Source of the DNA: Psammoneis japonica
Lineage: Eukaryota
NCBI GenBank assembly: GCA_008632985.1
Contig: QPGO01000369.1
Location: 1-37,631, forward strand
DNA length: 37,631 nt
Reading direction: 5' to 3'
Part shown: positions 4,246 through 37,631 of the stretch, in pieces
Numbering within the stretch: position 1 is the stretch's first letter
Layout of the letters: each line of letters starts with the position of its first letter
Notes under the pieces: generated by a model
Databases searched by the model: none
Told to the model about the DNA's origin: nothing
What the model saw: only the letters and a program-made list of their open reading frames with translations
Position numbers and translations under genes: made by a program

Positions 4246-4295
4246 GGGTGGAAGCGCAGCAGCACTGTAAATGTGGAATTTTGGTTTTGTTTTGA
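51..4295 (+). pseudogene. LINE ORF2 (reverse transcriptase, RNase H, zinc knuckle); open but hypermutated
   Basis: RT motifs IYGTGQGSGNSP and GGHVDDT (normally [YF]VDD). RNase H motifs ASDGS, SSYRAEACG, HCDNSAL, WVKGHQD, NMRADRLA. C-terminal CIHC...DHILHC. Only 4 Tyr in 1414 aa. The true start is upstream of the window, and the native stop was probably near 4140-4200 and lost. Confidence 0.85.
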
Positions 4296-7830: not shown

Positions 7831-8106
7831 TGACAGAAATTGAAGGCAAATGGCAAGAATTCAAACAATGGCTCCTTGCTGCTGTCTAAATGGCAGATGA
7901 GTCTCCGCTCAGAGACCATTGCAGGAGCCGAAAGACGTGCAAGTTGGTGCAATCGGGCCACTGTCATTGTTCTTGTGAGCCTTGTGGCTCGAAAGCAAAC
8001 TGCATTGCGCACGAACGCGCGGAACTAAAGCACACAAAACTGTGCGCGGCAAACTAAACAGCGCGTGACATTTCGCGTGCACCTGAATCCTGTTCAAATC
8101 CTGTCA
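7831..8106 (-). repeat. 3' LTR of copia element
   Basis: 276 bp, TG...CA ends, ungapped alignment to 14655-14930 with 27 transition differences. Confidence 0.95.
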
Positions 8107-11100: not shown

Positions 11101-13717
11101 TGGTGCAACCAGAGTCGACAGCCGGGGTGTTGGCACAAACGGTGTCAGTGGCAACAGGCTTGTTGCGGCGGTGCACATTAAGGGCGGGGTTGGGTGATTT
11201 GCAGGCCTTCCTAAGGTGTGCACCGGCGGGCATGCGGGCGCACTGCGTGGTGCAGTCAAAAGTACGATGGACCGCATCGGCAGGCAGGAAGCCAAAGCAA
11301 GGTCGAAGAGACTCAAAGGGGGGGTCCTTGGGCTGCACAGTGCGCTCCGGGGGCGGAACGTCGGCGTCCTTGGGGTCAATCGCGTGTGGATGACACTCGT
11401 AGAACACGTCGTTGTTCGGAATGAGATGATCATCGAGGGCGGACGCATGATCGGCAGACAAGGAGGCGGACATGATGGTCTCGTTGACAACGACACGATG
11501 ACGGCAGTTGCCGCATTCGTCAAATGGGTTGGCAGTGGGATCGTCCTGCAGGTCAGAGATCGCGTCGCACCACTGGTCGTCGTCAGTGACAGAGTGATCG
11601 AGGGCGGAAGGATCCCATGTGTCATCACCGGTGAGGATGACATGGGGCAGGGTGTCCCATTCGGCATCAGTGTGAGGTCGCATGGCAACATGAGGCAGGC
11701 CGCCCTTGATGTCAATGGGGATGACATGGCCATCAGGAGTGGCAATGCATTGCAAGCCGTTGGGCACCTTGACAGAGCGATTGTTGACATCCTGTTTGTG
11801 CCATTCGAGCTGGCCGCAGGAGTGGATGGTCTTGCCCGTGCATGCGTGCTGATGGAGGATGGCGATGACGGGACCACGCTGGGTCTCAATGACAGCACCG
11901 GCGGTGACAACAGGGATGTCCACCAATTGATGGTCGTCAATGCCCTGAACGTCGACTTGGCGAGAGGTGCGTGCAATGACGCGAATGTCGTCGCCAGCAA
12001 TGCCGCCGTTGGCCCCACGATCAACTAGAGCGCCAGTGCGTGTGGAGCGATGAGCAGAGGCAGAGCAAATGACATTGTGGTCATTGACGCGGCGGCAAGT
12101 GCGGCCGTTAAGTTCTGTGTCATCGGTGGGAGCTGGCGGAGTGGAGGGATCGGTGGATGGCCCCGGTCGACCAGCATTGGGGGCTTGGTTAGGAGACTGC
12201 AGGTGTTGCAGATCACCGGGTGGCAGCGGCTTGCGCTTGGTGAGGTGCGCCAGGATGGGATTGTCCGAAGTGGCACCCACATTTGGAGCGGGTTCACCAG
12301 AGTCAGCAGGAGTCGTGTGGGACAAGTTGACATCACCATCACTCCCAAGGCGTTGGTCGTGAAGGTTGGCCGTAACGGACTCATGGTGGTTGCTCGCTCG
12401 CGGGTTGCGGGGAGGTGGGCAAGAATGCTCAAGGATGATCACCTTGGAGGAATGGGGCAACGAATCCCAAATCCGTTGGTGGTCGGGAGGGAGACGTTTC
12501 CATTGGTCACCGGTGAGGCTGGGACCACGGGTGCAGGCAGCATCAGCCTGAAGGACGTCAATGTCGCTGTCGATGTCGCAGAACACATCATCGGACGGTT
12601 CGTCGGAGTGGACATCGTGTGCGTGTGTGGCACGTCGGGGAGCTCGAGGTGTCGTCTTGGGTTGAAACGCACTGTCGCATTGAGCTGCCGTGGAGAGGAG
12701 CAAGCCACAGCATTGATCGCATGTGAGGCTCTTGCCACTCTGCGCACGATGCTGATCAGCTTGGTTCTTGACAGCACGGAGTTCCTCGACAGGGTGTGCG
12801 GCATTCTCGAGCATGACATGCTTCTGTCCTTCAGAGAAGTGGTCACTGGCCGGGATGAGTGCCTCGCACTTGCGCAACTGATCTTGCCAATGAAGGATGA
12901 ACCCGTGGGTCGGACCTTTCCAAGTGCCATCACCAAGACGTGAGGTGGTGAGGTGCGTGAGCAAGGTGGAGGACTCGACAGATGCGTGGGTGGAGGCAAG
13001 CGCATGCTCAGACAAGGCGCGGCAGACGGTCTGGGCGTCGGAAGACCCCACATTTTCGTGGATGAGAGCCTTGCCCTTGTCGGTGAGAAGGATGCGTTCG
13101 AAGACGGCGAACATGTGCTTTTGCTGTTCAGCAAAGAGCAGTTTGTCTTCGGGGCTGGTCGGTTTGTACGACGAGTCTAGAGTGCACTCGACATCTTGGG
13201 CACGGGCTTGTGCCACAAGTGAGGTGTGCCAAGTGTGCCACTGCTTGTTGGATTTGAGAGCCGTGAAAGCGGTGGGATCACGCTTGATGCCTCGCTTGAA
13301 GTCCCGCACCGGGTCGCGTGCCTTGGTCGGGTTGGTGACATGCGGAGGTGCAAGGGGTGAGCTGCCGATGGACACAGAGGACATGCAGTCGGGGCTGAGA
13401 CAGCAGGCAAGGAACTCGTCATGTGTGAACAACGAGGAGTCATTGGCAACATCAAGACCTTTGTGTGCTTTGACAATGTGCAGACCAACTAGAGCTGCTA
13501 ACATGTTCTTACAACCGTGGGGCAAAGGGATCACATTGGTGCCGTTGTTGTGCTCAAGCGAGTCGATTTGGGACGGCATGAACGTGAACAGTTCTTGATG
13601 CGAGTCCGCGCCGTCTTGGGCCAAAGCCAAATGAAGAGGGCTCCCAGCACCTTGGGCAAGCACGGTTCCAACAATGTGCTCGAAACCATTGGTTTGTTGC
13701 TGACGAGTGAGAACCAT
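8054..13717 (-). pseudogene. Copia gag-pol polyprotein with one in-frame nonsense codon
   Basis: Protease LVDRGANGG; integrase ISDRAQVE and SEPHQQHQNFAERR; RT HKARLAADG and YVDD; RNase H CVDANL, ATHGSEF, GDNKSVV, NPADILSK. ORFs 8876-13747 and 8054-8854 share a frame and are separated by TGA at 8876-8878, where Arg (CGA) is expected (SLG-R-IDI). 7 Tyr in the 1623-aa ORF. Confidence 0.9.
8107..8119 (-). other. Polypurine tract of copia element
   Basis: GCAAGCTGGGGAG on the minus strand, immediately before the 3' LTR. Confidence 0.7.
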
Positions 13718-14654
13718 GGCAGACAAAAGTGGTGTCAGGACAAGCAATTCCTGCTGGGAAGCGAAGGTAGACTTGAAACTTGGGTGAGAATGGACTTGAC
13801 TTGAAATGGACTTGACTTGAAATCTTGAACTGTCTTGAAGTCAGAAGTCGCCGGGCTGTGCCATCCCGTTCGTTGTTGAGTGCTAAACTTCCCATCCGGT
13901 CCACAGAGTTGTGCCGGCACGTCCAAACCCGCAGCCAGCGGCGCTTTGGGTTGCTTACGAGTGGAGTGGCGGGTTGTAAACCCCTGCAGGCAAGCTGACC
14001 AGAGGTGGACAAGACCCCCGAACCGTTCTTGTTTTATGTCGGTTGGATTTCCCGATCAGGCTGGCCAGTTGACGAAGGCGTTGGGCGCCGTGGACGAACG
14101 AACAAACGCGGGAAAGCACCCTCGCCCCAACGTAGGCTGCAATCACGGCCACTTGCTCTCACAGTCGTCCTCGTGGACCTGGCAGAGCTGCAGAGCACCA
14201 GCAGTCCGGGGCAGATCAGGTGCAATGGACTCGGCATGCTTGCAGGGTGGCAGCAAAACCGCAGTCCGAAGAGTGGGTGCAAGTTCTTGGCCGTGAAGAT
14301 GTGCACATGTGCGTGTGTCTTCAGCAACGAAGATGCTTGAACATGTGGGGTTCTTGACCATTGGCCGATGAATGGGCACATCAAGGGATGAGGATCAAGG
14401 GTGGACTTGGACATGACCGTTGATGTGTGTCTTCAGCGATCAAAGGCAGTGTGATCAATCCAGACATCCAGCGGTGAGGAGATTTGACGGTGACGTTAAA
14501 TTCCTGCCGATGCCTGGCATTGAATGCGCGCAGACTTGCCGATGTGTGTAGAATGCATGCAGAGGTCCATGCAGAATTGAAGTGGCGTCGTCAGCAAATC
14601 AACGATGACGATGGCGGTTGCTCAATGGGTTGACAATGAGCAAGACTGTTGGTC

Positions 14655-14930
14655 TGACAGAAATTGAAGGCAAGTGGCAAGAATTCAAACAACAACTCCT
14701 TGCTGCTGTCTAAATGGCAGATGAGTCTCTGCTCAGAGACCGTCACAGGAGCCGAAAGATGTGCAAGTCGGTGTGATTGGGCTGCTGTCATCATTCTTGT
14801 GAGCCTTGTGGCTCGAAAGCAAACTACATCACGCGCGAACGTGCGGAACTAAAGCACACAAAACTGTGCGCGGCAAACTAAACAGCACGCGACATTTCGC
14901 GCGCACCCAAATCCTGTTCAAATCCTGTCA
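14655..14930 (-). repeat. 5' LTR of copia element
   Basis: 276 bp, pairs with 7831-8106, followed by TSD CCAAG. Confidence 0.95.
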
Positions 14931-17780
14931 CCAAGCCTGCAGCACATCCAATGAAAAGTCACAAAGAACAGGCATTGTGTCTGCCTTGTTGCAGCATCTG
15001 TGCAGACCTTGCAAGAATTTCCTCCTCCACTGTTTGTCATTGGGACATCGAAGAATGTGGCCCCTGTCTTCCATCAGATGATCGCACGCAATGCGCTGGT
15101 GAGGACGAACTGGATTGCATCTGTGAGCAATTTTGTTCATGTGGGTGGTGGCAAGTCATGCACCAGCTTTGCCGCATTGATGTGTTTCTTTGAATGGCAC
15201 TTCACCAGGATTGCACGGGCATTCCAATCGACTTGCTCCATCACTGAAGGGGTCCATTGGCTGCATTCAATGATGCAGTCGATCAATTGGGGGGCGGTGG
15301 CTGCATGTCTGATCTGTTTCTTGTGGCTCGATGTTGCAGTGCCTCCCTCTGTTTCGAGGTGAGAGTTGCAATGAGGCAGATGCTTGACTTGTCACACAGG
15401 CAGTGACCCTGACATGCTCCTGCCAATCTGTCAGCGCGGATGTTGACTCTGGCGTTTGTGGGCAAGGCATGGACTGGAGAATGCCTGCCTTGATGTCCTT
15501 TCACCCATGAGACTGGAGGGAGAACAAGATCCTCTGAATCCAAAAGCTGCTTCAGAGTTTGCTGGGTGTGAAGAATTTTGTTCAGAACGTCCCAATCTGG
15601 AGCAATGGCATTGGCGCCATTGCAGCGAACATGAAAATTGTGTGGAGCGTGAGCTTCTTCGTCTGGGTCAATCGCTGGTGGGGCAGATGTCAACCGGGAA
15701 AGACCGTCGACCAAAGCCTTGTTGTCACAATGAATTGCCGCGTCCAAAGGAACCGAAATCCAACAACATTCACACAATCAAAAAATGAACCGTGCAATTG
15801 AAAGGATGCCACAGGCCTCTGCGCGATGCGAAGATGGCATCTTTCCAAAAATGGGTCCTGCGCAATTCACTGATGGTGCGCCGTCTGAGGCAATCGTCCA
15901 TCCGAAGGTGGCTCCCTCCCCAGCTGACCCGTCACTGCCTGTGGTGAGAGTTGCAGGTGGGCAACTCCTCTTGAGTGCTTCAACAGTTGTTGAAGTTGGG
16001 CCACTCCTTGTTCAACATCAAGCGATCGAAAACCTCCGCCTCCCAATGACTGTGGTCTGTAGAGAATGAGCCTTTTGGTGTTTCTGTTGTGACCACATTT
16101 GGCAAAAATCGTCCGCATGGCCTTTTGTTGTGCCTGTTGGAGCTCTTTTGGAAGAAAATTTGAGCCAGCCAGAACACATGTCATCAAGGAGAGGTGACAA
16201 GCGTGGCAATGTTTCCATGTTTCTGTCCTGTCCAGTGGGCACAACCTGAGAAACAAGGAGACAGCATTGCTCTTGTGTTGGAGTTTCTTCAACTGAGTTT
16301 TCTGTGCACCGATTGGAGTCATGCAGTGTCCCAGGGTTTTGTGAGGTGTGTGTGCTGACAATTGCTGGCTGCACCTGGAAGTGGTTTGGTCAGTGGAAAA
16401 GATCTCCACCTCAATGTTGTCATGACAGGGTCACATGTGCGGTTCTCCACACTCTGTAAAGTCCCATTCTGTGGCATGGAAGGAACACTTCAGCAACTCA
16501 AGTTCATGTCCTGCTGTGTCCAACAAGTCACACCACAGCCGGTTGTCCGATTGGAGAGACTGGGACAACTTGAGCGCGGAGGGCTGAGGACTGGCTCTGA
16601 AATCGTTCACCTGCTTGGAAGTGTCATCAACATGACCCCTGTTGCATGCTTGGATGTAGAACTGTCCGTCCAGAGTTTTGAACAACAAACCAACAGCTTC
16701 AGCATCAAAGATGTCAAACAGTCCACTGCGCAGAGTGTTCCAGCACCAAGGAGAATTTCCGCTGCCTTGTCCTGTTCCGCACAACGGGAACTCAGAGGAA
16801 TGGGAACAACTTTTTTGGGCGATTCCTGACAGAGTGCACAGCCAATGACATGCATGATGTGACATCGCCACATTGACTTTGATCACTCTCTCGTGCATGC
16901 CATCACTCTTTGCACACAAACCCACTGTTGCTGGGATGTTCCTGTCACAGCAAGAAGTGCAGTCATCATCACTGGTGAGCAAAGTTTTCCGGGTAGCACG
17001 TGACATTTCCAGCATCAAGTTTTTGAGAAACACAGGCGTTTGGGCGGAAAGGAAGGAGCAACATCTGTAAATCCCTGGGTTGTGCATTCAGTGGTGATCC
17101 ACATGCTGGGCTAATTTGCGCCACTTGACGCTTGCAATCAGTTGGAAATCTGCCTCGTAGATGTGAATCACGCACAATCGGTGCATTTTGTTGTTGCCTG
17201 GTTCTTTGAAGATCGTTGCATTCACAGTGTCTTTCCATTGTTTGCGTGAGCAACCCCACCTTAAAGCGCAGTTGATCAGGTTAAGTTGCATTGCCACAAG
17301 GGATTGCTGGACCAAGTCCAACAATTCTTTCTGCTCGGATGGATTCCTGTCATTGTCACAATCATTTGCATGGGAATGTGGAGCGCACAGGGCCTTCCAG
17401 TGTCCCAGACAAATCCCTGACTTCAATGAAGCAGATGTTGACTCTGACCACAATTTTGTCTTCAAGTGGAGAGCCTCAGGAGTGAGAGAATTTGGAGCTG
17501 TTGGTGGTGTCCTTCTTCGAAGATGCTGTGTCAGCAGCAAAGTGGCGCGGTTCAGGTGTCCAGTTTCATGTTCTCTGTCTAGGATTAAATTGGCCATGAC
17601 AGTGTCTCCTTCACATCCAAGGTCAACAAACAAGGGTGGGACAGTGAGAGGAGTGCCACGTGCCTGTCCGAAGTGTCGTTGGTTTTTTTGCAGTGCTGGA
17701 GCGCAGATTCAATGTTGTCTGGGGCATCTGTCATCACCCAATTCTCGCACGTTTTGGGGTTGTCTCGGGGGTCTTCAGGT

Positions 17781-22882: not shown

Positions 22883-23670
22883 AGGCGGGTCAGTCGCCAC
22901 TTTTTTTAGCTCGAGTTCGGTCGAACAGCTCGCATTTTGCATGGTTTTTCCTGAATTTCACCGTGCTTCACTGCAGTGAAAACAACAAGCCACAAGTCTG
23001 TGACGGAGGTGGCCCATCTGCCAACTCTCATTTGTTTTGTGTTTGTTGTGCATCAAAGATTGTGCATGCATGAAAAGTTGACAGACGGCATGCTGCATTT
23101 TTGAGAAATGTCGATGATTGTCATCATCGTCGTGCTTCGATTGCGGTGTTGATGGTTCTCGTTTTCGTGCACGACCGGGTGTGACCATGAACAATTGTTG
23201 CATTCAAAAACAAGCACTGCAAAAAATCTCACGCAAACACAACAATGGCAATTCTGGGACAAACGCGGGGGTGACCCGCCTCAACCCCCGCGTTTGTCCC
23301 AGAAATTGTCATGGCATTTGAATGAGGACATTTGCAGTGTTTGTTTTTGAATCCAAAAATTGCCCACATTCACCCCCGATCGTGCACGAAAATGAGAACA
23401 TCAGGCGCCGTGATCGAAGCACGACGATGACGGCAATGTTGACACAAGTCCAAAACACAGTGGTCCGTGTGCAAACATTTGATGTGTGTGTGACCTCAGA
23501 CACACAACAAGCACAAAACAAATGAAAGTTGATGCACGGCCCACCTCCGTCACAGACTTGTGGCTTGATGTTTTCACCACAGTGAAGCACGGTGAAATTC
23601 AAGAAAAATCATGCAAATCACGAGCTGTTCGGCCAAATTGGAGCCAAAAAAAGTGGGGGATGACCCGCCT
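22883..23670. mobile_element. Inverted dimer of a ~400-bp non-autonomous element forming a ~790-bp quasi-palindrome
   Basis: The arms 22883-23272 and 23284-23670 are reverse-complement homologues. Termini AGGCGGGTCA/TGACCCGCCT. Perfect 21-bp central stem 23252-23272/23284-23304. Confidence 0.8.
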
Positions 23671-23792
23671 TAGAACACCAGTTGTTTTTCATGCGTTTTG
23701 CAAACACATGTCAAAAACACAAGGGATTTCCCACCCTCAATCGTTAAATGTCAATCAAGAGTTGGTCGCAGAAAGATGCCAACTTGTCATTT

Positions 23793-24087
23793 GCAATCAA
23801 AAGCAATCAAAAGCAACAATGAGTGATGAAAAGTGATCACAAGCAATCAAAAGTCATCACAAGCAATCACAAGCAATCATGAGCAATCACAAATGATCAC
23901 AAGCAACCGCAAGCAATGAAGACAAATGTCCACAGACAAGCTGACACAACAGCCCTTTAAATCTGACCGTTGACATGACATTTTTGCACAAGAGACACAC
24001 ACTCGACTTTTTAAAGTAATCACAAGCAATCAAAAGGAATCAAAAGCAACCACAAGTGATCACAAGTGATCATCAGTCATCACAAGC
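23793..24087 (+). repeat. 10-bp tandem satellite, inferred ancestral unit AAGTAATCAT (mutated copies, two blocks)
   Basis: Units aagcaatcac, aagtgatcac, gagcaatcac and aagtcatcac at ~23793-23920 and ~24013-24087. The array continues at 26810-26860 beyond the Sola element. Confidence 0.8.
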
Positions 24088-26809
24088 AAGACTGGCCACA
24101 CAGAAAGGTGCTGACAGAGCTCGAAATGGCTCGCATGGTCGATTTTGAGGTGTGGATGCCAATCGAAAGCTCTTGATCTCAGCTCTTCAGCGATGTGTGT
24201 GTCAATGGCTGGCAATGCTTCCTTGACATTTTGTCAGCCACAAACCAAATTAACGGCTTGAATTGTTTGCTGTGAGTGTTTTGACCGTTGAGGAATTGCG
24301 CGAAATGACATGCCAAGAAAGTCACGCACACAAGTTGTGCAAAAGCACATGATTTTTAAGATTGTGCAAGTCTGCACAAATTGTCAAGCACTTGACATGA
24401 GGCTCAAATTTGAAATTCTCTTGGTGGAGGCAACAAGAGCAAAAGCAAAAGCGTCACAAAAAAAATGGCGCGGCCGAAACTGACCAAAGGCGTCAAGGAC
24501 GATGAGGCAGCAGAAAAGTTCTGCGATTGGCTTTCTGACCCCAACGAGTCTCCCATTTTCCATGAACATTGTGCCCAGGTGACTGCAAAGAAACCTGCGA
24601 AATGTCAGTGTCTGCAGAAGCCAAGAGTGATGTTGGAGAACAATGACACCTCCGTCGTGAAAATGTTGAGCAACTGCCTCGTGTGCTTTGAAAGACTGGG
24701 GTGCACAGAAACACATGCTGCTTTTACATCCTGGATCAAATGTTCTGCTTTCATTCAGAAGCATGCATGCAAGGGTGATTGTCGCTGCTTTGTTTTGCCG
24801 CTGTTGAAAACTGACGACAATGACGAGGAGGAGGCGGAGGAGGGGATGCCGCCGGACGATCATCTGGTCTGCCATGGTGCCCTCCTTGCATTGCTGGGCA
24901 AAGGGAGAAAGTTCTGGAGAACCGCCAAGTTGAGTGCAAAGAGCAACATCTTTCCGAAACATGGTCTCAAAGGGAAGACTGGGCAGAACGCGAACAAGAC
25001 GCTTGTGCCCGAAATGTTTGCAGCCCTTCACGCACATTTTGATGACATGAAGGAACTTTCTGAGCCACGTGCAACGAGACTGGTTAGAGAAGAGACAGGT
25101 GTCGGCTTGAGAGATGAAGACACACACGACTTGCCTCCCACCGTGAAAAAGCGTGGATTGTGCAAACGGCGCAGACAAGAAAATGGTTGGACCCTCAAAT
25201 CGAACCACAAAGGCAAGTTTCTTAAGGCGGAACCAATCGAAGGAGAAGACCAGCAACCAATGTGCTCCTGGGCACAATTTTGCAAGTTCTGGAAAAAGAG
25301 CTGTCCTGAAATTGTCGTGAGAAGGCCCACTCGTGACATCTGCGATGAATGCTGCAAGTTCGCAAATGGCTTCAGGATGAAAGCGATGAAAGAAAAGACG
25401 GGGGGTGAGAGCAACGACGACGAGGATGAGGAGGAGGAGAGCGATGATGATGAAGAAGATGGAGCAGATGCAGAGGTGAGAATGAAAGAGATTGAAGAAC
25501 AGGAAAATGAAATGTTGCATGCCACAAAGCACGTCGAGTGGGCTCGAAAGCAACGGACACTCGTGCAACAGCACATTTCGGAAGCGACAGAACACGCAAA
25601 AGCCGACAAGGCACATGGCGAGCGAACTTGCGCAAGGATTGGTGGCTGTTGTCAAAATGGCGGGCTTCCACATTTTGGGGCGGATCAGCCAGGGGAGACG
25701 CACTGCTTCTCTCCTTTGACAATCAATGTGTTTGGGGTTGCCGATCCTGCGGGGAAAAAAGTTGTGACGGTGACGGAAGATGAGTTCAAGGATTTTTTGC
25801 ATGCACGCGTCTGCCATGAGGGTGCTGGCCAAAAGGGAGGTGACAATGTTGCTTCCCTTGTGATGAAGCACTTGCATGATGGTGGATTGTTGGACATCAG
25901 TGAGGGTCCAGGCGGAAAGCTCACATTGATTTTTGACAACTGCATCGGGCAAAACAAAAACAACACGGCATTGAGACTTGCTTCTTGCCTGGTGGAACAA
26001 GGATGTTTCAAAGAAGTGAGCATCATTTTTTTGATGAAAGGGCACACCAAGAATGCCTGTGACAGGCTCTTCAACAGCCTCAAGCAAACTTGCCGTGACA
26101 AGAACATCGGCACGTTCTGCAAACTCTTGACAGCCTTGGACACCTCCGAATGCGTTCAGGTCGTTGAAGCGAAGGAGGAGGATTTTGTGGGGTGTGGAGC
26201 GCATTTTGACCAACATTGCAAGAAGTGCAGCGCAGCTGTGAAGCACCACTGCTTTGAAGTGACAGACTCTTCGGAACCCACGGCAGCAACAATGAAAGCA
26301 GCGGACGGTGAGCCAGAAGTTGCCGAGGATCTCAAGAAGAGGAAGACAGAATCGAGCGAGCAACGAAAACAGAACTTGCAAACGTCACAACCACTTGCCT
26401 TGACAGCTCCAGGCATCAAGGACATCAAGAAGGTCGAGCTTTGTGCCAAGCATCAGCCGCTTCTTGACAAGGCAGACCAAGACGAGATGTGCCCTCATCC
26501 TGGAGACGACGTCCTCAATCGCGTTGCGAAAAGCAAGAGAGAGAAGCGGAAGAACAAGCAGGCGGAGAGCGCTGAGCAGATGGCGCGAAATGAGAAAAAG
26601 AAAACCGCCAAAGCCAGTGCAGTTCTTTCGGAGAGGGACACAAATAAAAATTAATGGCAGTCCTTGTGTACACACAAATTTTATGTGATGTTTTATGTTG
26701 ACACTTTAATTGTTTGACATCGCTCAAAAATCTTGTAAGTGCCATTTTCTCGAAACAAATTTTGAGAGCTCGAGAGCGCGCGTTAGCACCTTTTTATGTG
26801 GCCAGTCTT
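24088..26809 (+). mobile_element. Sola1-like DNA transposon, 2722 bp, 28-bp TIRs, 4-bp TSD
   Basis: Left TIR AAGACTGGCCACACAGAAAGGTGCTGAC (24088-24115). Right TIR reverse complement AAGACTGGCCACATAAAAAGGTGCTAAC (26782-26809). TSD AAGC (24084-24087) / AAGT (26810-26813). Single transposase ORF. Confidence 0.85.
24465..26654 (+). pseudogene. DDD-type transposase (Sola1-like), open 729-aa frame, hypermutated
   Basis: PTRDICDEC; IGGCCQN...LPHFGADQPGETHCFSPL (expected D-Y-x-QN...ETYYFSPL); FDNCIGQNKNN; FLMKGHTKNACDRLF. No Tyr in 729 aa, and the first catalytic Asp appears to be Gly. Superfamily assigned from motif recall. Confidence 0.8.
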
Positions 26810-26860
26810 AAGTAATCATAAGTTATCATAGAGTCATCACAAGTCATCATAAGTCATCAC
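26810..26860 (+). repeat. 10-bp satellite, TpA-retaining copies
   Basis: aagtaatcat aagttatcat agagtcatcac aagtcatcat aagtcatcac. Confidence 0.8.
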
Positions 26861-27280
26861 CAGCCCCAACGACTTAAAACATAAAAGGTGTTCTTTGCCA
26901 AACAAGACTAAATTCAACGGATAACCGTTACGAACTACAAATCACGCAGGCCAAAATTTCCGTTGTAGTTGTATGAATACGCATGACTTATAAAAATTCG
27001 CGGACGGTGCGGTGCAGCATAAATCTAATGCTGTAAACGGAATGACCGTTCATATGAAATATTCATTCATTTATGACCATGACCAAGTTCTATGTTCCAT
27101 GTTGCACGTACAGTACAATCTACGTCTCTCAGAACATACAAAATGCCAGCCATCAATGACCTCATTTTTTACATCCGATTTCTCCTGGTAGAAACGGCGT
27201 GAAGCCCATAAAAACAACATCACCTTTCTCCTCTCATCGTGTCTTCTTGATCCAACTTTTGATCTTATTCAAGCAAAACG

Positions 27281-30116
27281 ATGCTCCCCCGTGTCTTTGC
27301 CTTTGCCTTGTTGCTAGGGTCGGCAGCGGCAAACAATAAGGACGCCGTTCCGCTCTTCAGCTCCCGAATGCCGGCACCCTCGAAGGCCTCTCCGTATCAC
27401 GTCCCAGGACACGTCGACCAGATTCGCTTGAATCGAGGAAGTCTCAACGCCGCTACTATCCTCGTTGATCTCTTTGAAGATGGCAGTGCCCCCTTGACTC
27501 TTCGCCAGGACCGCACCGTAATTGGCAAGCGCGGCGAACACACCTGGATGGGTCAGGTCGTCGGCTTTCCTAATAGTGTGGCCTCCTTTAGCTTCCACAA
27601 AGGAGCAATTTCCGGTTCCATCGTTTACGGCGTCTCTGAGATATTCGAGATTTCGTCGGAACAGGGTGGAACGGCAATCTTTGCGCAGATTGACGAAGAC
27701 AAGCTTCCTCCAACGAAGGAACTGTTCCCGCCCGCTTCTCGCAGGCTCCTCCGTGGAGCAACCGACGGAGACACCATCAGCGAGCAGACCAGTCTTGACA
27801 CTTCGGATTCACACCGGAGGGAGCAAGTCACCTCTGGAAACACAGTACAAGACATTATGGTGGTATACACGCCAGCCAGCCGAACCAGGTATGGTGGCAT
27901 CGCGGGAATTGAAGCTAAGATCGTGGAAGCCATCCAACTTGCAAACCAAGGCTATATCAACAGTCAAATCAACCTCGAGCTGAATCTTGTGTACATGTAT
28001 GAGGTAGGCTATACAGAAACAGGTGACATGGGTCTCACTCTCAGTCGCTTGAGAACTCCCGGCGATGGCTTTATGGATGAAGTGCACTCCGTTAGGGATC
28101 AATATGGTGCAGATCTTGTCGCCATGATATCGGAAGACAATAACTATTGTGGAATTGCTTATGTCATGACGAGTGATAGCTCAGACTTTGCTCCTTATGC
28201 CTTCAGCGTGACATTTTCAAGTTGCATTTCCGGATTGACCTTCACCCACGAAATCGGCCACAATCAAGGTACGTTCATTATTTTTCCATTGTCTCATTCT
28301 CTCCCATTTTCTCATCCCGTTTTCATTGCTTCATTTATAAATAAGGTTCTACCCATAACATCGAAAACGGGGGAAGTGCCGCATATCCTTATTCCTACGG
28401 TTACCGTGTATGTAACGATGGCAGTCTCCCTCCCCCCTACTTTCGCACTATCATGGCCTACGGCTGCACCGGGGCAACTCGCCAGAATTTGTTTTCCAGT
28501 CCTAACCTTACCTACGAAGGCGCGGTAGCTGGTACCGAAACTGCCAACAATGCTGAAAGCATCCGCAACACCATGGCCATCACGNCGCGTTTCGAGCTTC
28601 GGTGACTGTTCCCGCCCCGAATGCACCTTCGAACTTGGAGGCCACCACCGTCGGCGCAAACGAAATTTTAATTTCCTGGCAAGATAACTCCTCCAATGAA
28701 GAGACCTTCAGGCTGGAGCGATACATTGGTCAGGGTCCATGGGAGGAAATTGAGTCTCTTGCAAGTGATGTCACCTCTTTCAGCGACATTACAGCGCCAT
28801 GGACGACCAACTCTTACCGTGTTCGTGCCGTCAATGGCGGTGGTTCCTCTGAATATTCAAACGTTGGCCAAGCAACACTTACAGCGCCGACAATGGGCTC
28901 TGTGACGGCAGCGGCCCTTTCTGGAAGTGAAATTCGGCTAAATTGGGGGGAAATTGATGGAGCGGACTCCTATGTTGTTGAGAGGTTGAGTGGAGGAAGC
29001 TGGCAGGTCTCTGAAACGACGTTCACGGACACTGATCTCCAGTTGGCAACGGAGTACTCCTACAACGTTACAGCTCAAAAAGGACTAAGCTCTACAAGCC
29101 CATCGCCCACCGTGTCTGCCACAACGAGTGATAATGTTGAAGTGTTCCCTTCGACCGAGACCAACAGTTTTGGAACGGTGACTGGTTCTCTCGCGCGCCT
29201 TGATGCCGCAGATGGCAATGCTGAATCCATCCGTGAAGAAGAATCTAGTGGCAATCCTAGTCGCCGTATTTCCCGATTGTCTCATGAATGGTATTTCACC
29301 CTTCCAAACGGATGGGATCATGCCACCGTAACTGCCACAGCGTGGCACCAAGGCGAAGAAGCTTTCAATTTTGACGTCTCCCTGGATGGAGGAAACAGCT
29401 TTTCAAGATTGTTTGTCGTAAACACAATTCCGCAAGCACCTACACGAAACTTATTTCGGGGTCTGGTGTCAGCGATGTAAGAGTGCGAGTACTTGATGCT
29501 AATCGTGTCCAGGGAGAGCGGACTCTTGACACTGTCTACGTTGACCAGCTTTTCATCAAGGCTTTCGTGAGTACTGGCGGTGGCAGTCCACCATCAGCTC
29601 CGTCCAACTTGGTGGCAGTGGCACCAGAGAGCACCGAAGTGCAGCTCACCTGGAACGACAACTCTATAGATGAGTTGGGTTTTGAAGTTGAACGTAGCGA
29701 GGATGGTGGAACGACCTGGGTCCCCAGCGCCACGACCGTGACCGCTTCTTCGGTGGACTTTGACGTTTTGCCTTCCGCTACGTATGACTATCGCGTGAGA
29801 GCCTACAATACAGCTGGAAATTCTGCATGGTCCAACGTTGCCCCAGGTAGTTGTCCCCGCCCCACCTACAGGAGGCCCAATTACCCTGAATATCACGACC
29901 CGCAAGGAAAAAGGATTCAACGTCTGTGACTTAACTTTCTCTGGTGCTACCACAAGCAATGTTGAAATCTATCGAAATAGTGCATTGGTCACAACCACCC
30001 AAAATGATGGATTTTACATGGACAACACTGGCCAAAAAGGAGGCGCGAGCTACGTTTACACAGTGTGTGATGCGGGTGGTTCGACCTGTTCACCTGACGT
30101 GACCGTGGTCTTTTGA
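27281..30116 (+). CDS. Secreted metzincin zinc metalloprotease (reprolysin-like M12B / peptidyl-Asp M72-like) with fibronectin type III repeats and bacterial-type C-terminal domains
   Basis: Signal peptide MLPRVFAFALLLGSAAA. Splicing of intron 28269-28345 gives HEIGHNQGSTH (HExxHxxGxxH), then YSYGY and Met-turn FRTIMAYGC. FN3 repeats (APSNL...WQDNSSNE...YRVRAVN). Apparent frameshifts at ~28585 (next to an N), ~29425 and ~29843 (C-run) are probably assembly errors. Normal Tyr and TpA content. Confidence 0.85.
28269..28345 (+). other. Spliceosomal intron (77 nt) splitting the zinc-binding motif
   Basis: GTACGT donor, pyrimidine-rich body, AAG acceptor. Phase 1 (G|GT = Gly) and it completes HExxHxxGxxH. 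Confidence 0.9.
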
Positions 30117-30528
30117 AGAAACTACATCCCACGCGTTCCATTTAAAGTTCTATAGGCATAGAAAACTGGCAGTTCATTGCCTCTCCTGGAGCCTACTAAT
30201 GACGAAAAAGTACCTTGTCAATGTGTCCGCCTCTTCTCTCACGTCGTTTGGCATAGGGTTGGTGCTAAGTAGGACCTGTGTGCTCTCTAGCCAGCTAAAA
30301 GAGAGCAGTCTGTCCGTCCGCATTCTTGATTGATCGGCCATGGACAAGTGATGGCCTGCTCGTCGGCTCGAGCTCGGCTTCTCACTAAATCGTTGGCTTT
30401 CCCGTTGAGCATGTTGAAGGTGTTTACGTAAAATTGTTCATAGCCCCTGGTGTGTTGGGAGCACTGTGACTGAATGTGCTGTGTGGCACATGGAAGGAGG
30501 AGTCCCCACTCACAAAACAGAGCAACAA

Positions 30529-30933
30529 GACGGTTCCAGTCCTGCCGGCAGCTGGGTGGGGCTGTTTGCAACATTGGGCCCTCGGAGTTCTGCACGCAAG
30601 CTCCACAGCAAGATTGCAAAGCAATGAATGCATAAATGATTGCCAACAAAAACAGAGCAATTTTGCAAGCGCATCTCCTCCTCCACACTTGAGGTGCATC
30701 ATCTGTGGTTTGCCCAGGCATGTTCTTCAGACATGAAGGAATGCACCCAGCATGTTTTCATTCCCACAAATGTGGAACATGGAGGGCCTTTGGCTTTGCA
30801 AAACAGGGAGCATGAAACAATTTTGCATGAGATCACAGGCAGAAATGTGAGTGTGTGACATGGGGCACAATCCAAAAAACTCTTGGTGTTGCAGCTCAGC
30901 AGTGCAAGGTCCCACCTGGAACTTGAGCACACC
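30529..30933 (+). mobile_element. MITE family A-related copy
   Basis: GACGGTTCCAGTCC start and GCAAGGTCCCACCTGGAACTTGA end. Interior homologous to 35224-36132. Confidence 0.65.
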
Positions 30934-31252
30934 ACAAAATTGGCAAGCCTGACAAAGAAGGCAAGGTGCCAGGGAAGGTTTGGCACCCAGGCCCATTCCA
31001 CTCATGATGATGATGGGCAAAGGTGCTTGTTTGTCAGCTGTCAGCATCAACTCTCCATGGTTTCTGATGGGGATGATGTGTTGAGATGCCCAGATGACAG
31101 CAAACAGAAGATTGGGCAAGTGGGGCTCTGTTGCACATCATTGTGGACAAGAAATTGGATTTTTGAGCCAGGGCTCAAGCCCAGAGCTTGAAGCATGTGA
31201 GCCAACAAACACTCTGTTTTTAAGAAAAGATGGTGCATTCAGGCCAGGACGT

Positions 31253-31756
31253 GATGTGCTTCAGCCGCACATGACTCACAGCGTGCACAAAAACAACAAC
31301 ATTTGCATCTGTCTCTGACTTGCAAACAACCTTTCACCACCAAAAGTGCAGACTCATCCAAATTTTGATGTTTGGCAACACTGGCAAGACTCGTGTTGGT
31401 GTTTCAGTGTCGCTGTCATTGTGGAGCAATTGTTTGTCAGAGCGTGCATTCCAGTGATCAAGGGTGCCTTTCTCACAGTTTTTTTTTTCACTGTGACAGG
31501 ACACCAGATGTTGCACGTGGTGATTTTTTGCAAACTCCAGATCTCTGCAAAACTCGTCAATCACAATTGTTTGTGTGCTTGTGTCTCATTTTGGTGTCCA
31601 ATTTTTACAGGGGTGCAAAGCTGTGTGCTGCAAATCAATTGAATCAGCGGTTGCTGTTTCAATGTTTGCACTGCTGTGACCCAGAAATGACTGCCACCAT
31701 GGATGCTGTCTCCTTGCCAGACTGGCTGTCTCACTCTGTTTTCAGTTGAACAAATC
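31253..31756 (+). mobile_element. Decayed MITE related to 33893-34422
   Basis: Shared start GATGTGYTYCAGCYGCACRTGAC and interior caccaccaaaag...gcaacactggcaagact. Right end uncertain. Confidence 0.5.
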
Positions 31757-32261
31757 TCAATGCAACAAAAGAGCAAAAGCAATGCCTCACACCCAAAGCA
31801 AGTGGCGACAGCGTCAGTGCAAACCTTAGCTGATTGGATTGTTTGCACATGAGCGCACCTCTGAATTGTGACTTTGCAACTGTCCCATCCAGGGACAGAC
31901 CACTCCATCCAAATTCATTTGGCTCCCGCAAATCGGCAATGACAACACTGATTTGTCTGCATGCAACATCCTCTCACAGAGAGGCAAACCACAGAAACCC
32001 AAATTAAACCACCAGCAATGCTGGCTTGGGAGGTCAAAGCATGTGGGCGCAAGCCACAGGTGTCTGACCTTGGTGTTGGGACATTTGCCCAAAGACACAA
32101 GAGCAAAGTTTCCAACGCCACTCTCCTGTGACCTTCTTTGCAGCAGATCTGCCAGGTTTGTTTCTGCGCCCTCTTTCCAAACATGAATGATGCCCTCTGC
32201 AACCGCTTCTCACACCACATGACAGATGATGACATTGTGCTTCTTGTGCAAGACCGATTTG

Positions 32262-32351
32262 GGGACACTTCCATTCCACATGCACGACACCATGATTGTC
32301 GCAAAAGGGACACTTCCATTCCACATGCACGACACCATGATTGTCGCAAAA
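32262..32351 (+). repeat. Perfect 45-bp tandem duplication inside the old copia RNase H
   Basis: gggacacttccattccacatgcacgacaccatgattgtcgcaaaa x2, followed by gacactt microhomology. Confidence 0.9.
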
Positions 32352-33892
32352 GACACTTGCTGGACCCTCAAGAGGTGCTCCAAACGTGCAAATCTTGTGA
32401 TGCAAAGCAACAAACAACTCCTTGCAAATCCGCGCTGCAGCCAACTTGCTGCCAAAAGTTGCCAACTCTGCTGTGTTCTGCCATTTTCTGTGCCATGTGA
32501 TTGGTGCATTGTTGACAAATGTCAGGATTCTGCCATGAGACCTGCAAGTGACAACATTGCCTGCATGGCTGGAATCAACAAAGGCGCAGATGTTGACCAG
32601 GTTGCCATGGAGCTTGGGTGCCCACAGCGGCAACTCTTTCTCAATGTCCCACAAAACTTGGTCCAATCTGCACTCAAGTTGAATGTGGGCTCATCAGCTG
32701 CCAGCTCCTTTGGATCAAACCCCATCCTTCCAAAGTTCTGGTGTTTCTTCACATGCGCAAACACACAATGCAAAGCCTTGAGGTGTCCCTTCCTTGGGCC
32801 AGCTTGACACTGGGAAAGGATTGAGACCTCATGCAGAACATCAGCAGGGCCCAACTTGATTGCATGATGACAAATTCTTGTCAGCTGCAGATGCCTGTCA
32901 ACTGGATCATGGCCCAATTTGTCAATTGCACCCAGCTCTGGCTTGCACTTTGGGGGCAGAGGATCCTTTGCGGCGCTCTTCAGTGCTTCTCCATTGCCAT
33001 CCTCATCCGAGAGACCTTCCACCACTGCTTGAACACATGCCCTTGGCGAGCTTGCCCAGATTGCATGTCCATCCTCAGTCTGAACCTTCTCAACATTGGC
33101 CCCAAGGTGGATCTCTGGTTCTCCATCACTGCCAGGCTTCACAGCACAGTGTTCACCTGTGGCAGCAACAATGGACTTCCCTTGAGATTGGAGTCTCATT
33201 GACACAAACCAAAAGCATTTCGCAATGCTCGTGCCCACCCTCCCAAGTTGCCACTTGCAGGCAGACATTGGGGTCCACTCTCATTTGTTCAAACCCTGAT
33301 TCGTGCAAGACCAGTGCCAGCCTGGATCTCCAAGAGCATTTCTGAGCTCTTCAGACCATGCAATGCACAAACAACAATGAGCGCCTTTCCTTCATGCTTG
33401 ACACATTCCTTGCTGCCTTCAAACCATGGCTTTTCTGCACATGGTGCATTCAAGTGCACGTTCTCTGGGTCAATTGCTGTGATGTCAACTCCATTCAAAG
33501 CTGCTGACAGGAATCCAAGTTGCACGCTGTCTCTGGAAACAATGCTTGAATGCATTGTGGATGATGGAGCCTCTGTTGTGTGACCTCCTGCCACAAATCT
33601 TGCCTTTCTCGTGAAGTCTGTCTTTGCACTGAAAACCATTTGACACACAATCTCCTGACAGCCAAGCAAAGTTGTGCTCTTGCCTTCCCAGATGCCTTGT
33701 GGGGTTTGAGCTTCATGCTCGTGCCACACCACTGCTTGACCTTGGTCATCTCCTTGTCAATCGCACAAGCCCAATGATCTGTCCCCATTTCCTGACCAAT
33801 CTTCAAAGCATCTTCCGCAGACTTGGGCAAAAGAATCCCAAACTTGTGGGTGGCAAGCCAGTGCTTCATCTCAATCTTCAAAATGAAGTGAT

Positions 33893-34422
33893 GATGTGTT
33901 CCAGCTGCACGTGACCCAAATCGTGCACAAAAATGACATTTGCGCAATTTTTGCGCAGTCTCTCACTTGCAAACAAGATTTCACCACCAAAAGCATGGAC
34001 TTGTCCAAAATTGAATGTTTTGCAACACTGGCAAGACTTGCATCAGTGTTGCCATGTCATTGGTTTTGTGACATCTGTGTTTTTCATTGTGACAAATGAC
34101 TCACAACACAATGGATGATTTTTGGCAAAATTGTTGCCATCACTTGAATGTCAAATCAAACAATTTTTCTGCAAGACCTTCTGACAGGTGTTCCACCTGT
34201 GACCAAAAAACTGCATCCAATGAGCTGTCGCACAATCAGCACTGAGTCTGCAGAGGGAGTTTGTGGTGCATGTCCCATGAGGAATTGAATGCCAAGGCTT
34301 GAAGACCCACAAAATCCCATCCACCCAAGTGTTTTGCATTCACATGCTTCATGCACAAGAGACACATGATTTGTGGTAAAAATTCATTGTCTTTTGTGTG
34401 TTGCCTGAGACTGGAACACATC
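33893..34422. mobile_element. 530-bp MITE with 12-bp TIR GATGTGTTCCAG and 4-bp TSD
   Basis: GATGTGTTCCAG...CTGGAACACATC, flanks TGAT/TGAC. Interrupts copia pol. Confidence 0.75.
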
Positions 34423-35223
34423 TGACTCTGCTTGCACGGGACACGCACAACCCACAAGCAAGTGCAGGTTGCTCAGCCAACCTGTTTGTTGCAACAGGAT
34501 GCTCAGCAACTTCAACAGGGTTGGACTCTTTCAGATCCTTCAATTTCACCCATGACAAGCTTCCATCCTTGGCTCCAGCTGACCAACAGCTTCCAACCTT
34601 TTGCAGTGGTCCTTTTTGACTCCTGTTTGTCAGCAATTTGTGCTGTTCCATCATTGGTTGGCATTGCGTTGCCTGTCTTCTCATGATCCTGCATCTCTTT
34701 CAGTGCAAAACATTGGTTGTCTTCACTGTTGACTTGAACAAACCTGTTCTCAGCAGCTGCACTGGCTGTGTGCTTGTCTGTTGCACCATTGGCACATTTG
34801 ACTTCATGCTCTCAAGTGTCAAATGTTGGGCTCTGATGTCTGGTCCCAGCCAGATGCCCATCTTGTCCTTTTGCCTGTTTTGTGAGGACACCTCATTGCT
34901 CACCATTGGCTCCAATGTCAAACACAAGTTCCATGCCCAGATGCTGGTTGATTGCCTGCTCATTGTCATTGTCTGGCCGCTTGTCTGGCAATGGCATGTC
35001 TCCACATTCCTTGTCCGTTGGCATGACACCATCCTCACATTGGACACTGGGATTGTCATCTGTGGCAAGATCATCCAATGCAAATGCTGGCACAGCTTTG
35101 TCACCCTCTGAAACAAAGCCAGTGTTGCCCAGGTGTGTCTCAAGTTGCCCATTGAACTTGTGAACCTCAACATGGATGTCAGGCTGCACCACATTGGCCT
35201 GCGTCACATGCTCCACCAATGTT

Positions 35224-36132
35224 GACGTGTTCCAGCCCCAGGTGAGACTTTTTGTGACATGGTGCCCGCCAAATTCTGTGTGCAAGCTCCACAGCAAAAT
35301 TGCCAAGCAACAAAAGTGTGAATGATTGCCAACAGCAAAAGAGGCAATTTTGCAAATGCATCTCCTCCTCCACACTTGAAGTGCAGTCTGCTCGCGTCAA
35401 CACATGCTGGGGGTGCATGCCGAATTTCAGCACATGTCACAGAGAGGATGTGTGTCATTGCTTTCTGGTGCAAAAGCGTGCATCTTTGCCACACACACAG
35501 AACAAGTGCCAGCACATGCGCAGATTGAAATCTTGCGCTTCTCCCTCACGACTCATTTGTGCTACGTTCGTGCAGCCACCACTGCAATTTTTGAAAAAAA
35601 CCATGACATGCCTTCATCTGTTCTTTGGTCCTGCCAGGCGCAAAGAAGCCCAGGACCACTTCTCAGAGGCAAACAATGGTCAATGAGGGCATTTTCAGTT
35701 GTTTCAAGCGCAGTCTTAATGACTTCATTGCCTCAAACTGGTTGCATCACGGATTCACGACATGGCCTGTCGGTCTGTCAGTCTGTCTGTTAACAGGGAA
35801 TTCTGACCCTTGTCCGAGGGGTCAGGCCAGACATTTGGCACATGTTGTAGAGTGGGCACATGTTAAAAAGCATGTGTTGATGCAAGCAGACTGTGCATTG
35901 TTGACAGCATGGCCGGGTGTGTTCTTCAGACAATGAAGAATGTGCCCAGCGCATTTTTGTTGTCACAAATGCAGAAAACAGAAAGCCTTCGGCTTTGCAA
36001 AACAGGCAGTGTGGAACAACTTTTTTGCAACAGAACATGGAGAAATGCATGTGCAAAACATGTGACGGATGACAAAAAACAATCATGTCACTGTCCAGCA
36101 GTGCAAGGTCCAACCTGGAGCTTGAACGTGTC
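35224..36132 (+). mobile_element. MITE family A-related copy carrying a nested insertion
   Basis: GACGTGTTCCAGCCCCAGGTGAGA ... TCCAACCTGGAGCTTGAACGTGTC, flanks TGTT/TGTC. Collinear with 30529-30933 once 35384-35893 is removed. Confidence 0.75.
35384..35893. mobile_element. 510-bp Tc1/mariner-type MITE (25-bp TIR starting CAGT, 2-bp TSD)
   Basis: CAGTCTGCTCGCGTCAACACATGCT / AGCATGTGTTGATGCAAGCAGACTG, flanked by TG on both sides. The empty site is visible in the 30529-30933 copy. Confidence 0.8.
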
Positions 36133-36725
36133 TGTCTTTGGGAGACTGTCTTCCTGCTCTCCACAATGATCCAACAGCACATGTCCAGTCTGACTTTGTG
36201 TGAGACACCAAGCCACCAACCAAGCTGTCATTGGGCCACCCACTGCACTCAGCTTGTTGGGCCTGTCCCGCCACCATGCCATGTCACAAAAGCAAAAATC
36301 CAAGTGCTCGCCAATTTCCAGTGTTTGCCCAGTGACCTCTTTGCACCCAGCCCTCTCATCACTGCCCCACACCATGTGCAATGACAGCTCCAACTCATGA
36401 ACAAGACCAAAGTCCCACAATCTTTTTGGCACCTTCTTCTTTGCCATTTGCAGTCGCCAATGCTTGGCCAAGAAACAGATCTTGCACTCCGCTGCTTGAC
36501 TCTGGTTCTTTTGACCCTGTTCTGATGTCCCAAGTTCAATCCTCACATGACGCGCATGCCTCACAAACTCAGCAGTGCTCCTGCATTGTCTGTAAAGACA
36601 ACAAGAGACCAACCTGCCTCCAGCCTTGTGGCCATCAGCATGACCTTGACAAATTTGCCTTGAGTGCAGACATTGGCACACGTGTCACCGAGCAAAGACT
36701 TGACCTTGGATGTCCATGAACCACA

Positions 36726-36915
36726 TCCCTTCTTTCAAGTGCTTCCAATGTGGGTCCAAATGGTCCACCCTTGCTCTTCTTGACACATGTCCCTTCTTTC
36801 AAGCACTTCCAATGTGGGTCCCAATGGCCCGCCCTTGCTCTTCTTGACACATGTCCCTTCTTTCAAGCACTTCCAATGTGGGTCCAAATGGTCCACCCTT
36901 GCTCTTCTTGACACA
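36726..36915 (+). repeat. 64-bp tandem triplication inside the old copia
   Basis: Units start at 36726, 36790 and 36854 (tcccttctttcaagYRcttccaatgtgggtcc...cttgacaca). Confidence 0.9.
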
Positions 36916-37631
36916 GGTTGAGTTGCCATCTGCGTGCCATGTTGGGCAGCCACATTGAGCATGTCTTTTGCCGTTTCCAAGCTGATGCTCCATTTCCTGG
37001 CCAGCTCTTTGGCATCAATCTTGGAGTGTCTGTCCTCACTGTGTGGCTCCTTGATGGACTTTTGCTTGGCATCAATGTCATCTTGACACGTGCAAGCCAC
37101 ATTGACCAAGCCAATGAGCCTGTCTTAAAATGACTGGAGGTGACAAACTGGGGACAAATGGGTCAGCTCGACTTCAACCTTGCCCCAGCCAACTGCTTGG
37201 GACTTTGCCCTGTCACGCCTTGATTCTGAAACATCTTCCTGTCACATGTGCCGGAAGTTGATGATCTGATGGTGCGCATCTCTGCCTGTTCTCCAGTGCT
37301 TTCTGGCAATCCCATGTCAACTTCAGTTGGATCCCATGCGTTGCCTGTCAAAAGCACAACCCCAAGGGCACACTGAATTAATCTCACGCATTGGGCAGTG
37401 CCCCTGACCCCACTTTCACCCCAGATTGTCAAAATGTGTAAAACACCCCTGTTTTGTAAAATGCCCCAGTGACAAGCAGCAGCTTGGGTCATCATGGTGC
37501 TTTCGACAGTCGAGTCAAGTAGTTTTTGCTGTTTGCGCATTCAAATTGCGTGCACTGACAGTGAGTTCTAACTTCCAGGTTCCTTCTGGTTTTGATCTGA
37601 CATCAAACATGACCAAACAACAGCACCAACG

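Follow-up and report, generated by a model that had tools for sequence, protein, structure and literature searches.

Probable TpA-directed hypermutation of repeat-rich DNA with an edge inside a DUF7869-family transposon near a gene

In repeat-induced point mutation (RIP) of Neurospora and other fungi C>T changes at CpA create TpA and make stop codons, and in animals the APOBEC3 and ADAR enzymes edit cDNA or RNA that is not yet integrated, with ADAR preferring a U before the edited A. Hypermutation of DNA directed at the dinucleotide TpA is very recent and comes from one preprint on one alga, Bigelowiella natans (Mettrop et al., 2026, bioRxiv 10.64898/2026.01.13.699255); neither the enzyme nor the targeting rule is established, and an ADAT2-like deaminase is proposed. 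In mutation-accumulation lines of this alga two viral inserts, one from a giant virus, single-copy and silent, the other from a virophage, accounted for 231 of 302 nuclear mutations; 230 of the 231 were A>G/T>C, and all are stated to be on TpA. The TpA-poor coding sequences (CDS) of B. natans have a mean TpA frequency of 0.0018 and are enriched in DDE and reverse-transcriptase domains, and 124 TpA-poor clusters were described, the cut-offs being a TpA rho ≤0.43 and CpA+TpG ≥1.52 in 1-kb windows, at least three in a row (Mettrop et al., 2026). Here we analysed contig QPGO01000369.1 (37,631 nt, called the window below), in which a terminal inverted repeat (TIR) DNA transposon of the DUF7869 family is inserted in a satellite close to a gene. 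The kind of process is already known from B. natans, and the locus is a saturated example of it on transposons, probably in another organism. A search of the literature yielded no second paper with a TpA>TpG/CpA signature and none on TpA loss in transposons.

TpA is rare in the window as a whole (rho 0.13), and its loss is regional. When the window is divided into 500-nt bins, TpA rho is 0-0.24 over positions 1-26500 and 0-0.15 over 30501-37500, with 0-5 TpA per bin, whereas positions 26501-30500 reach 0.51-0.79 with 14-28 TpA per bin. Altogether 133 TpA are left in the 33,632 nt of converted DNA, versus 159 in the 3,801 nt of the TpA-normal island (26645-30441). CpA and TpG rho in the converted bins is 1.0-2.25, mostly 1.3-2.2, and across the parts of the transposon CpA+TpG rho is 1.45-1.84. 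As satellite, leader and open reading frame (ORF) all have a low TpA rho (Table 1), coding and non-coding DNA on the left of the island are equally stripped. ATA/TAT contexts make up 8% (11/133) of the TpA that survive in converted zones, versus 47% (74/159) in the island, and the best-surviving contexts are TTAA, CTAA, GTAA and CTAC. CpG is distributed in another way: CpG rho is 0.07-0.5 in 30501-37500 and mostly 0.4-1.0 in 1-26500. Since the TpA loss is equal in both zones, CpG decay and TpA loss are not coupled one to one.

The ORF of the transposon matches Pfam DUF7869 with an E-value of 3e-20. Its 43 homologs reach at most about 39% identity; diatom (Psemu1) proteins are among them, as are numerous unnamed sequences of marine origin. 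The TIRs are 28 nt long and complementary at 25 of 28 positions; a degenerate pattern of both arms has two matches in the whole window, where 0 are expected (100 shuffles). Excision of the element together with one flanking 4-mer re-creates the 10-nt register of the satellite, and the two 4-mers are therefore the target-site duplication (TSD), identical at insertion, as is typical of a cut-and-paste TIR transposon. The left part of the satellite holds three TpA in 318 nt. Its units CAAGCAATCA, CAAGTGATCA and TGAGCAATCA differ from the right part at two places of the unit, where TA is replaced by CA or TG.

The two ends of the element differ at four positions, and all four differences are transitions. 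Three are mismatches between the TIRs (left versus right, the latter read as reverse complement), namely 24101 C/T, 24103 G/A and 24113 G/A, and one is the flank mismatch at 24087, AAGC versus AAGT. At three of the four the right end has TpA and the left CpA or TpG. An earlier note on this DNA had described the left TIR and TSD as mutated and the right ones as intact, and the arms, the flanks and the dinucleotides at both ends agree with this. The same note had placed all four differences, as T>C or A>G, at or beside TpA. All are indeed transitions and three of them lie at TpA, but "beside TpA" had to be dropped as a mutation class, as among the 43 other transitions in five repeat pairs no more than 2 are next to a TpA-derived site.

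Table 1. Coordinates and TpA content of the features of the window.
Feature	Position	Strand	TpA rho	Remarks
Copia-type long terminal repeat (LTR)	7831-8107			internal clock for the process
Copia polyprotein frame, RVT_2	8876-13840	-		Tyr 0.4%, His 6.0%, Cys 3.0%
Copia-type LTR, second copy	14655-14931			
Satellite, left part, TpA erased	23770-24087		0.12	10-nt units; host of the element insertion
TIR DNA transposon, DUF7869 family	24088-26809			2,722 bp; with 4-mer flanks 24084-26813
Left target-duplication copy AAGC	24084-24087			C derived from T, at the TpA formed with the element's first A
Left TIR, mutated	24088-24115	+		C at 24101 and G at 24113 in place of TpA bases
Left TIR and leader			0.07	
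ORF, DUF7869 (Pfam), transposase-like	24465-26654	+	0.02	729 aa
Left edge of TpA-normal island	26641-26645			165 nt inside the element
Last 165 nt of the element			0.55	
Element 3' end, unmutated, TpA kept	26645-26781	+		TAA stop at 26652-26654
Right TIR	26782-26809	-		TpA kept at 26784/5 and 26795/6
Right target-duplication copy AAGT	26810-26813			obeys the ANNT flank rule of the family
Satellite, right part, TpA kept	26810-26870			units AAGTAATCAT, AAGTTATCAT
Right flank			0.71	
Gene, single-copy, secreted-type reprolysin-like M12 metallopeptidase with fn3 domains	27235-30170	+	0.61	ATG 27281
Right edge of island	30441-30448			support 30441-30477; about 50 nt inside the next repeat

The direction of the change was deduced from outgroups. 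For the protein the ORF was compared with 17 homologs, a conserved Tyr column being one with Tyr in at least 60% of them. The ORF does not contain a single Tyr, versus 2.3-4.2% in the homologs. At all eight conserved Tyr columns (four of them Tyr in 17/17) the window has another residue, seven times Cys and once His, i.e., TAY>TGY/CAY. In addition, Ala is found in 4 of 18 conserved Val columns, which could stem from GTA>GCA. With no Tyr left and 8/8 conserved Tyr columns changed the ORF is, as judged from its translation, open yet dead, and its openness is no sign of activity of the element.

For the termini 80 related loci from metagenomes were used, 20 of which have both ends and give 40 arms and 17 distinct insertions. 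The 20 complete relatives share with the window 28-nt TIRs starting with AAGAC, ANNT flanks, a length of 2.7-3.5 kb and one ORF of about 730 aa; AAGAC is present in 38/40 arms and AAGCC in the remaining two, and terminal inverted repeats are thus common to the relatives and the window element with its 25/28 arms. A T precedes the left end in 20/20 relatives, and an A follows the right end in 20/20. Both flanks read ANNT in 17/17 distinct insertions, the left AAGC of the window being the exception. Because the right AAGT obeys this rule and the left AAGC breaks it, the C of the left flank is derived. At TIR position 14 T is found in 25/40 related arms, and the right-TIR stretch ATAAAAAGGT recurs identically in the TIR of one relative (L060). 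The TIRs of the relatives are identical (30/30) in 8/17 insertions and 19 of their 23 mismatches are transversions, mostly at the inner end, unlike the three mismatches of the window, which are all transitions. Furthermore, the 80 related loci have a TpA rho of 0.26-0.88 with a median of 0.63, so that TpA loss is not a trait of the family. The lowest value belongs to the 1570-nt locus L053 (TpA rho 0.26, CpA/TpG 1.42), a possible case of partial conversion in another organism.

Contigs of the DNA run X1 provide other copies of the element, for which the best-supported rows were considered. In these the TG of the window at 24197, 24339, 24482 and 25049 is matched by TA in every contig, and its TG at 24572/3 and 24628/9 by CA in the other copies; another three rows show differences of CpG type. 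The TpA content of the right side is ordinary and not raised (rho 0.55-0.71), and without an excess of TpA there a RIP-like C>T process is excluded. Taken together, these comparisons of homologs, relatives and copies show the left side to be the derived one, through T>C and A>G at TpA.

Next to the transposon, the Copia-type element of the window shows where the process acts. Its two LTRs, identical when the element integrated, now have 27 differences in 277 nt, all of them transitions: seven CA/TG doublets (14 places), ten of CpG type, one TA/TG and two others, 15 being TpA-derived. A CA/TG doublet implies a TA ancestor that was resolved separately in each copy, and five repeat pairs contain 31 such doublets altogether. 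Since the host satellite, one TSD copy and the LTRs after their integration were altered, no RNA step is needed, and LTR pair and satellite make a stronger case for action at the DNA level than the class of the transposon alone. The converted left junction is reproduced by an independent X1 contig of near single-copy depth (40.6), which matches 23942-24191 with 0 differences. By the evidence of these repeats the process works in place, on chromosomal DNA and after insertion.

Two further observations concern the repeats. In the Copia frame a few Tyr survive, including the Tyr of the YVDD motif of the reverse transcriptase (13xxx). The stretch 22883-23670 is a near-palindrome of 788 nt with arms that are 77% alike, 12 CA/TG doublets and an X1 depth in the thousands, and looks like a high-copy foldback-type repeat.

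The island has sharp edges, and both lie within repeats. On the left the change-point fit has a 2-unit support of 26581-26645 and a log-likelihood gain of 64; no TpA is present between 25223 and 26645, and nine follow in the final 165 nt of the element. The ORF stops 7 nt beyond this edge, which is expected because the first TAA or TAG is possible only outside the converted zone. On the right the other copies of the adjoining repeat align from 30401 and have a C at 30441, where the window keeps the T of a TpA. A single-copy X1 contig of depth 51 covers 26892-30392, whereas the summed X1 depth is 290-1030 over the element and thousands beyond, i.e., the DNA is multi-copy on both sides of the island. 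The converted zones track the multi-copy DNA except for about 250 nt that are spared on the left and about 50 nt on the right, and both spared stretches face the gene. In turn, a short spacer (23915-24010), part of which belongs to the near single-copy contig 23942-24191, is converted, as is the left end of the element. The gene is covered by a contig of run X2 that spans 27235-30170 and skips a 77-nt GT..AG intron at about 28266-28342; from this spliced contig we guess that X2 is RNA-like. Transposon, LTR and satellite are converted and a gene with a spliced contig is spared, although contigs cannot show silence.

The remaining statements of the earlier note can be read against these results. 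It had taken the left side as derived, for which the loss of Tyr, the T in 20/20 relatives, the TA of other copies and the normal TpA on the right speak. A process on DNA without RNA intermediate, which it had based on the transposon, is recovered from the satellite, the single changed TSD copy and the seven LTR doublets, and its edge inside the element (~26640-26700) is narrowed by the change-point fit to 26641-26645. Its suggestion that a chromatin domain sets this edge is a plausible proposal.

Most probably, repeat-rich DNA was hypermutated here in place from A:T to G:C, specifically at TpA, and the mutated zone halted inside the transposon near the gene. The element of 2,722 bp would have inserted into the 10-nt satellite, about 470 nt upstream of the gene (terminus 26809, ATG 27281). 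After insertion, the mutated zone would have taken in the left satellite, the left TSD, the left TIR, the leader and the ORF up to 26641-26645, with TpA turning into TpG or CpA depending on the strand that was hit; the last 165 nt, the right TIR, the right TSD, the right satellite and the gene would have retained their TpA. One element then shows two fates because the zone halted at 26641-26645. The signature, its direction, the action in place after insertion, the near saturation and the sharp edges are what the data show. As to the chemistry, the likeliest route, also proposed for B. natans, appears to be that an enzyme deaminates the adenine of 5'-TpA-3' to hypoxanthine, which is read as G; a mispairing modification of thymine would be expected to give the same pattern. 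Targeting by silent chromatin that is bounded by the active gene is plausible from the edges, and we give it about an even chance.

Several points weigh against this account. The fourth end difference, 24103 G versus A, concerns the base after a TpA. At this TIR position (16) related arms are split, with A in 20/40 and G in 18/40, so the change may have gone in either direction, as an ordinary substitution of the left or the right arm. The rows compared for other copies lie outside the two TIRs and 26645-26813, so that the TIRs of these copies are presumed rather than seen to be symmetric. Only two edges are available and both flank one gene, and the repetition of the right end gives chromatin targeting no positive support. 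Finally, the choice of strand is uneven and inconsistent: in the transposase Tyr>Cys prevails 7:1 over Tyr>His, and in the Copia frame His is in excess over Cys. A bias by transcribed strand was considered and dropped, because transposase and Copia element disagree.

The strongest competitor is targeting by repetition or homology, similar to RIP, where the 165 nt would be an edge effect or a stretch that was then without a partner. In its favour, the mutated zones follow the multi-copy DNA and the island follows the single-copy contig 26892-30392, and the two maps disagree by no more than about 250 nt to the left and about 50 nt to the right. However, the spared right end and right satellite are multi-copy as well (summed depth 1029 and 667, versus 290-900 elsewhere in the element), and since the right end is at least as repeated as the remainder of the element a pure repeat-sensing rule would have converted it. 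The left end of the element, likewise an edge of homology, is fully converted together with the spacer 23915-24010, sparing is confined to the sides that face the gene, and the main target in B. natans is single-copy (bioRxiv 10.64898/2026.01.13.699255). We regard homology targeting, combined with sparing near the gene, as the second most likely rule, with a low probability, and protection spreading from the gene or a silent domain that halts at it fits the edge pattern better than a pure repeat sensor. The multiple copies would also offer donors for a replacement of the last ~170 nt by gene conversion or recombination, or the element might have arrived with its left part already mutated, and the less mutated copies do read TA at four sites where the window has TG. 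However, the left TSD and left satellite are host DNA that was mutated in place, size and termini agree with the intact relatives (2,675-2,833 bp), and the unmutated state runs unbroken through the right TSD, the right satellite and 3.6 kb of unique DNA. As it continues past the right TIR in this way, no replacement patch is needed, and a younger or foreign right end has very little probability.

An artefact of base-calling at a modified base, or an effect of composition through selection or codon usage, is still less probable. The window assembly does contain small indel errors against both runs (28583, 29424, 29841). However, the converted left junction is identical in a contig of an independent run, TpA is as scarce in the non-coding leader, the satellite and the LTRs as in the ORF, and selection could not strip every Tyr from a transposase. 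The reverse direction, a RIP-like C>T process that hit the right end and the island while the left kept the original state, would account for three of the four end differences, since CpA/TpG versus TpA is also the dinucleotide pair of RIP. It is refuted by the outgroup comparisons: the right side has an ordinary TpA content (0.55-0.71), the related elements have a median TpA rho of 0.63, the ORF lacks the Tyr of 17 homologs, T precedes the element in 20/20 relatives where the left flank has C, and the CA/TG doublets of the LTRs require a TA ancestor. It can be set aside almost with certainty, and we return to A:T to G:C hypermutation at TpA for the comparison with described systems.

With the B. 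natans preprint as a reference, the locus shares the nearly exclusive A>G/T>C changes at TpA that yield TpG and CpA, the regional clusters with depleted TpA and gained CpA+TpG, which are also found here, and the domains typical of transposable elements, the ORF having 3 TpA in 2180 versus their mean CDS frequency of 0.0018. The target in the alga is silent and single-copy and hence compatible with a rule that is not based on repeats. However, the window shows a fossil pattern, whereas de novo mutations were measured in B. natans. The targets are transposons, a satellite and LTRs here and giant-virus and virophage inserts there. In addition, at least 26 kb of the window are nearly saturated (rho 0-0.24), compared to 0.45 for the nucleocytoplasmic large DNA virus (NCLDV) insert, and the edges are resolved to a few bases inside repeats that face an expressed gene, with a flank preference being visible.

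Like RIP, the process resembles a defence, acts on DNA after insertion through transitions in one dinucleotide context and kills transposon genes. In contrast to RIP, base and direction are opposite, and TpA is lost on the mutated side (rho 0.02-0.12) instead of being created. No stops are made; TAA and TAG are erased and long frames remain on both strands. With APOBEC3 and ADAR it has a deaminase-type hypermutation with a preference for a neighbouring base in common, but host satellite and TSD were changed in place here and both strands were hit. CpG decay by deamination of 5-methylcytosine likewise feeds CpA and TpG and also marks the repeats of the window, yet it has another substrate and explains neither the loss of TpA nor the CA/TG doublets.

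The converted DNA contains long open frames on both strands, e.g., one of 1430 aa at 3-4295 with no Pfam match and a 666-aa frame antisense to the transposase ORF (24384-26384, - strand). For the other long frames in converted zones no Pfam match was obtained. The island gene is a different case. Its closest relatives are of bacterial type (46-48% identity) and yet it has a spliced intron; the gene may be an old gene transfer. No near-identical protein was present in a collection of 5.8 billion proteins (proteins of 180-2000 aa), which makes the published B. natans reference strain an improbable source of the window. At three places both runs, X1 and X2, contradict the window by a single-base indel: each has one more G behind 28583 and behind 29424 and lacks one base at 29841. 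Position 28585 of the window is an N, and these small assembly errors break the frame of the gene.

Regarding the DUF7869 family, the two flank 4-mers of the relatives are identical in 8/17 insertions (loci L007-L080). Of the nine differing pairs three are exact reverse complements (five when repeat entries are counted), e.g., ATTT/AAAT and ACAT/ATGT. As many pairs differ and some are reverse complements, they are unlike a plain 4-bp duplication, and the target of the family may be an 8-bp palindrome-like site. Placement in a superfamily gave mostly negative results. The best hit of the ORF profile among solved structures had an E-value of 0.042 and was an unrelated protein, Pfam on 30 members of the family returned DUF7869 (PF25273) alone and no DDE or RNase H-like family, and the word DUF7869 was absent in a full-text literature search. 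DDE_Tnp_ISAZ013 was found on 11% of the members of one Atlas protein cluster, which is a lead only. The Sola superfamily, which has its own type of transposase core and a 4-bp duplication, was considered as a candidate; the Sola literature passages came without defining motifs.

Beyond what is described for B. natans, the locus adds a TSD and a host satellite as proof of action in place on the chromosome. It also adds the end state of the process, in which about 98-99% of TpA is gone and all Tyr codons are lost without any stop being created. In practice, gene finders will call false genes in converted DNA, because the erasure of TAA and TAG leaves long frames. Moreover, edges of a few bases inside repeats facing an expressed gene make chromatin and homology targeting testable against each other at named coordinates. 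More tentatively, and with somewhat less confidence than in chromatin targeting itself, the enzyme may be recruited by silent chromatin, and not by repeats or element ends, in a second eukaryote as a saturated defence, with the border as a fossil, at base resolution, of a heterochromatin boundary that the active gene keeps in position. If true, the insertion of the transposon moved this boundary about 2.9 kb towards the gene, where it halted about 640 nt before the start codon. And should the organism be another one than B. natans, the system has a wider distribution than has been reported.

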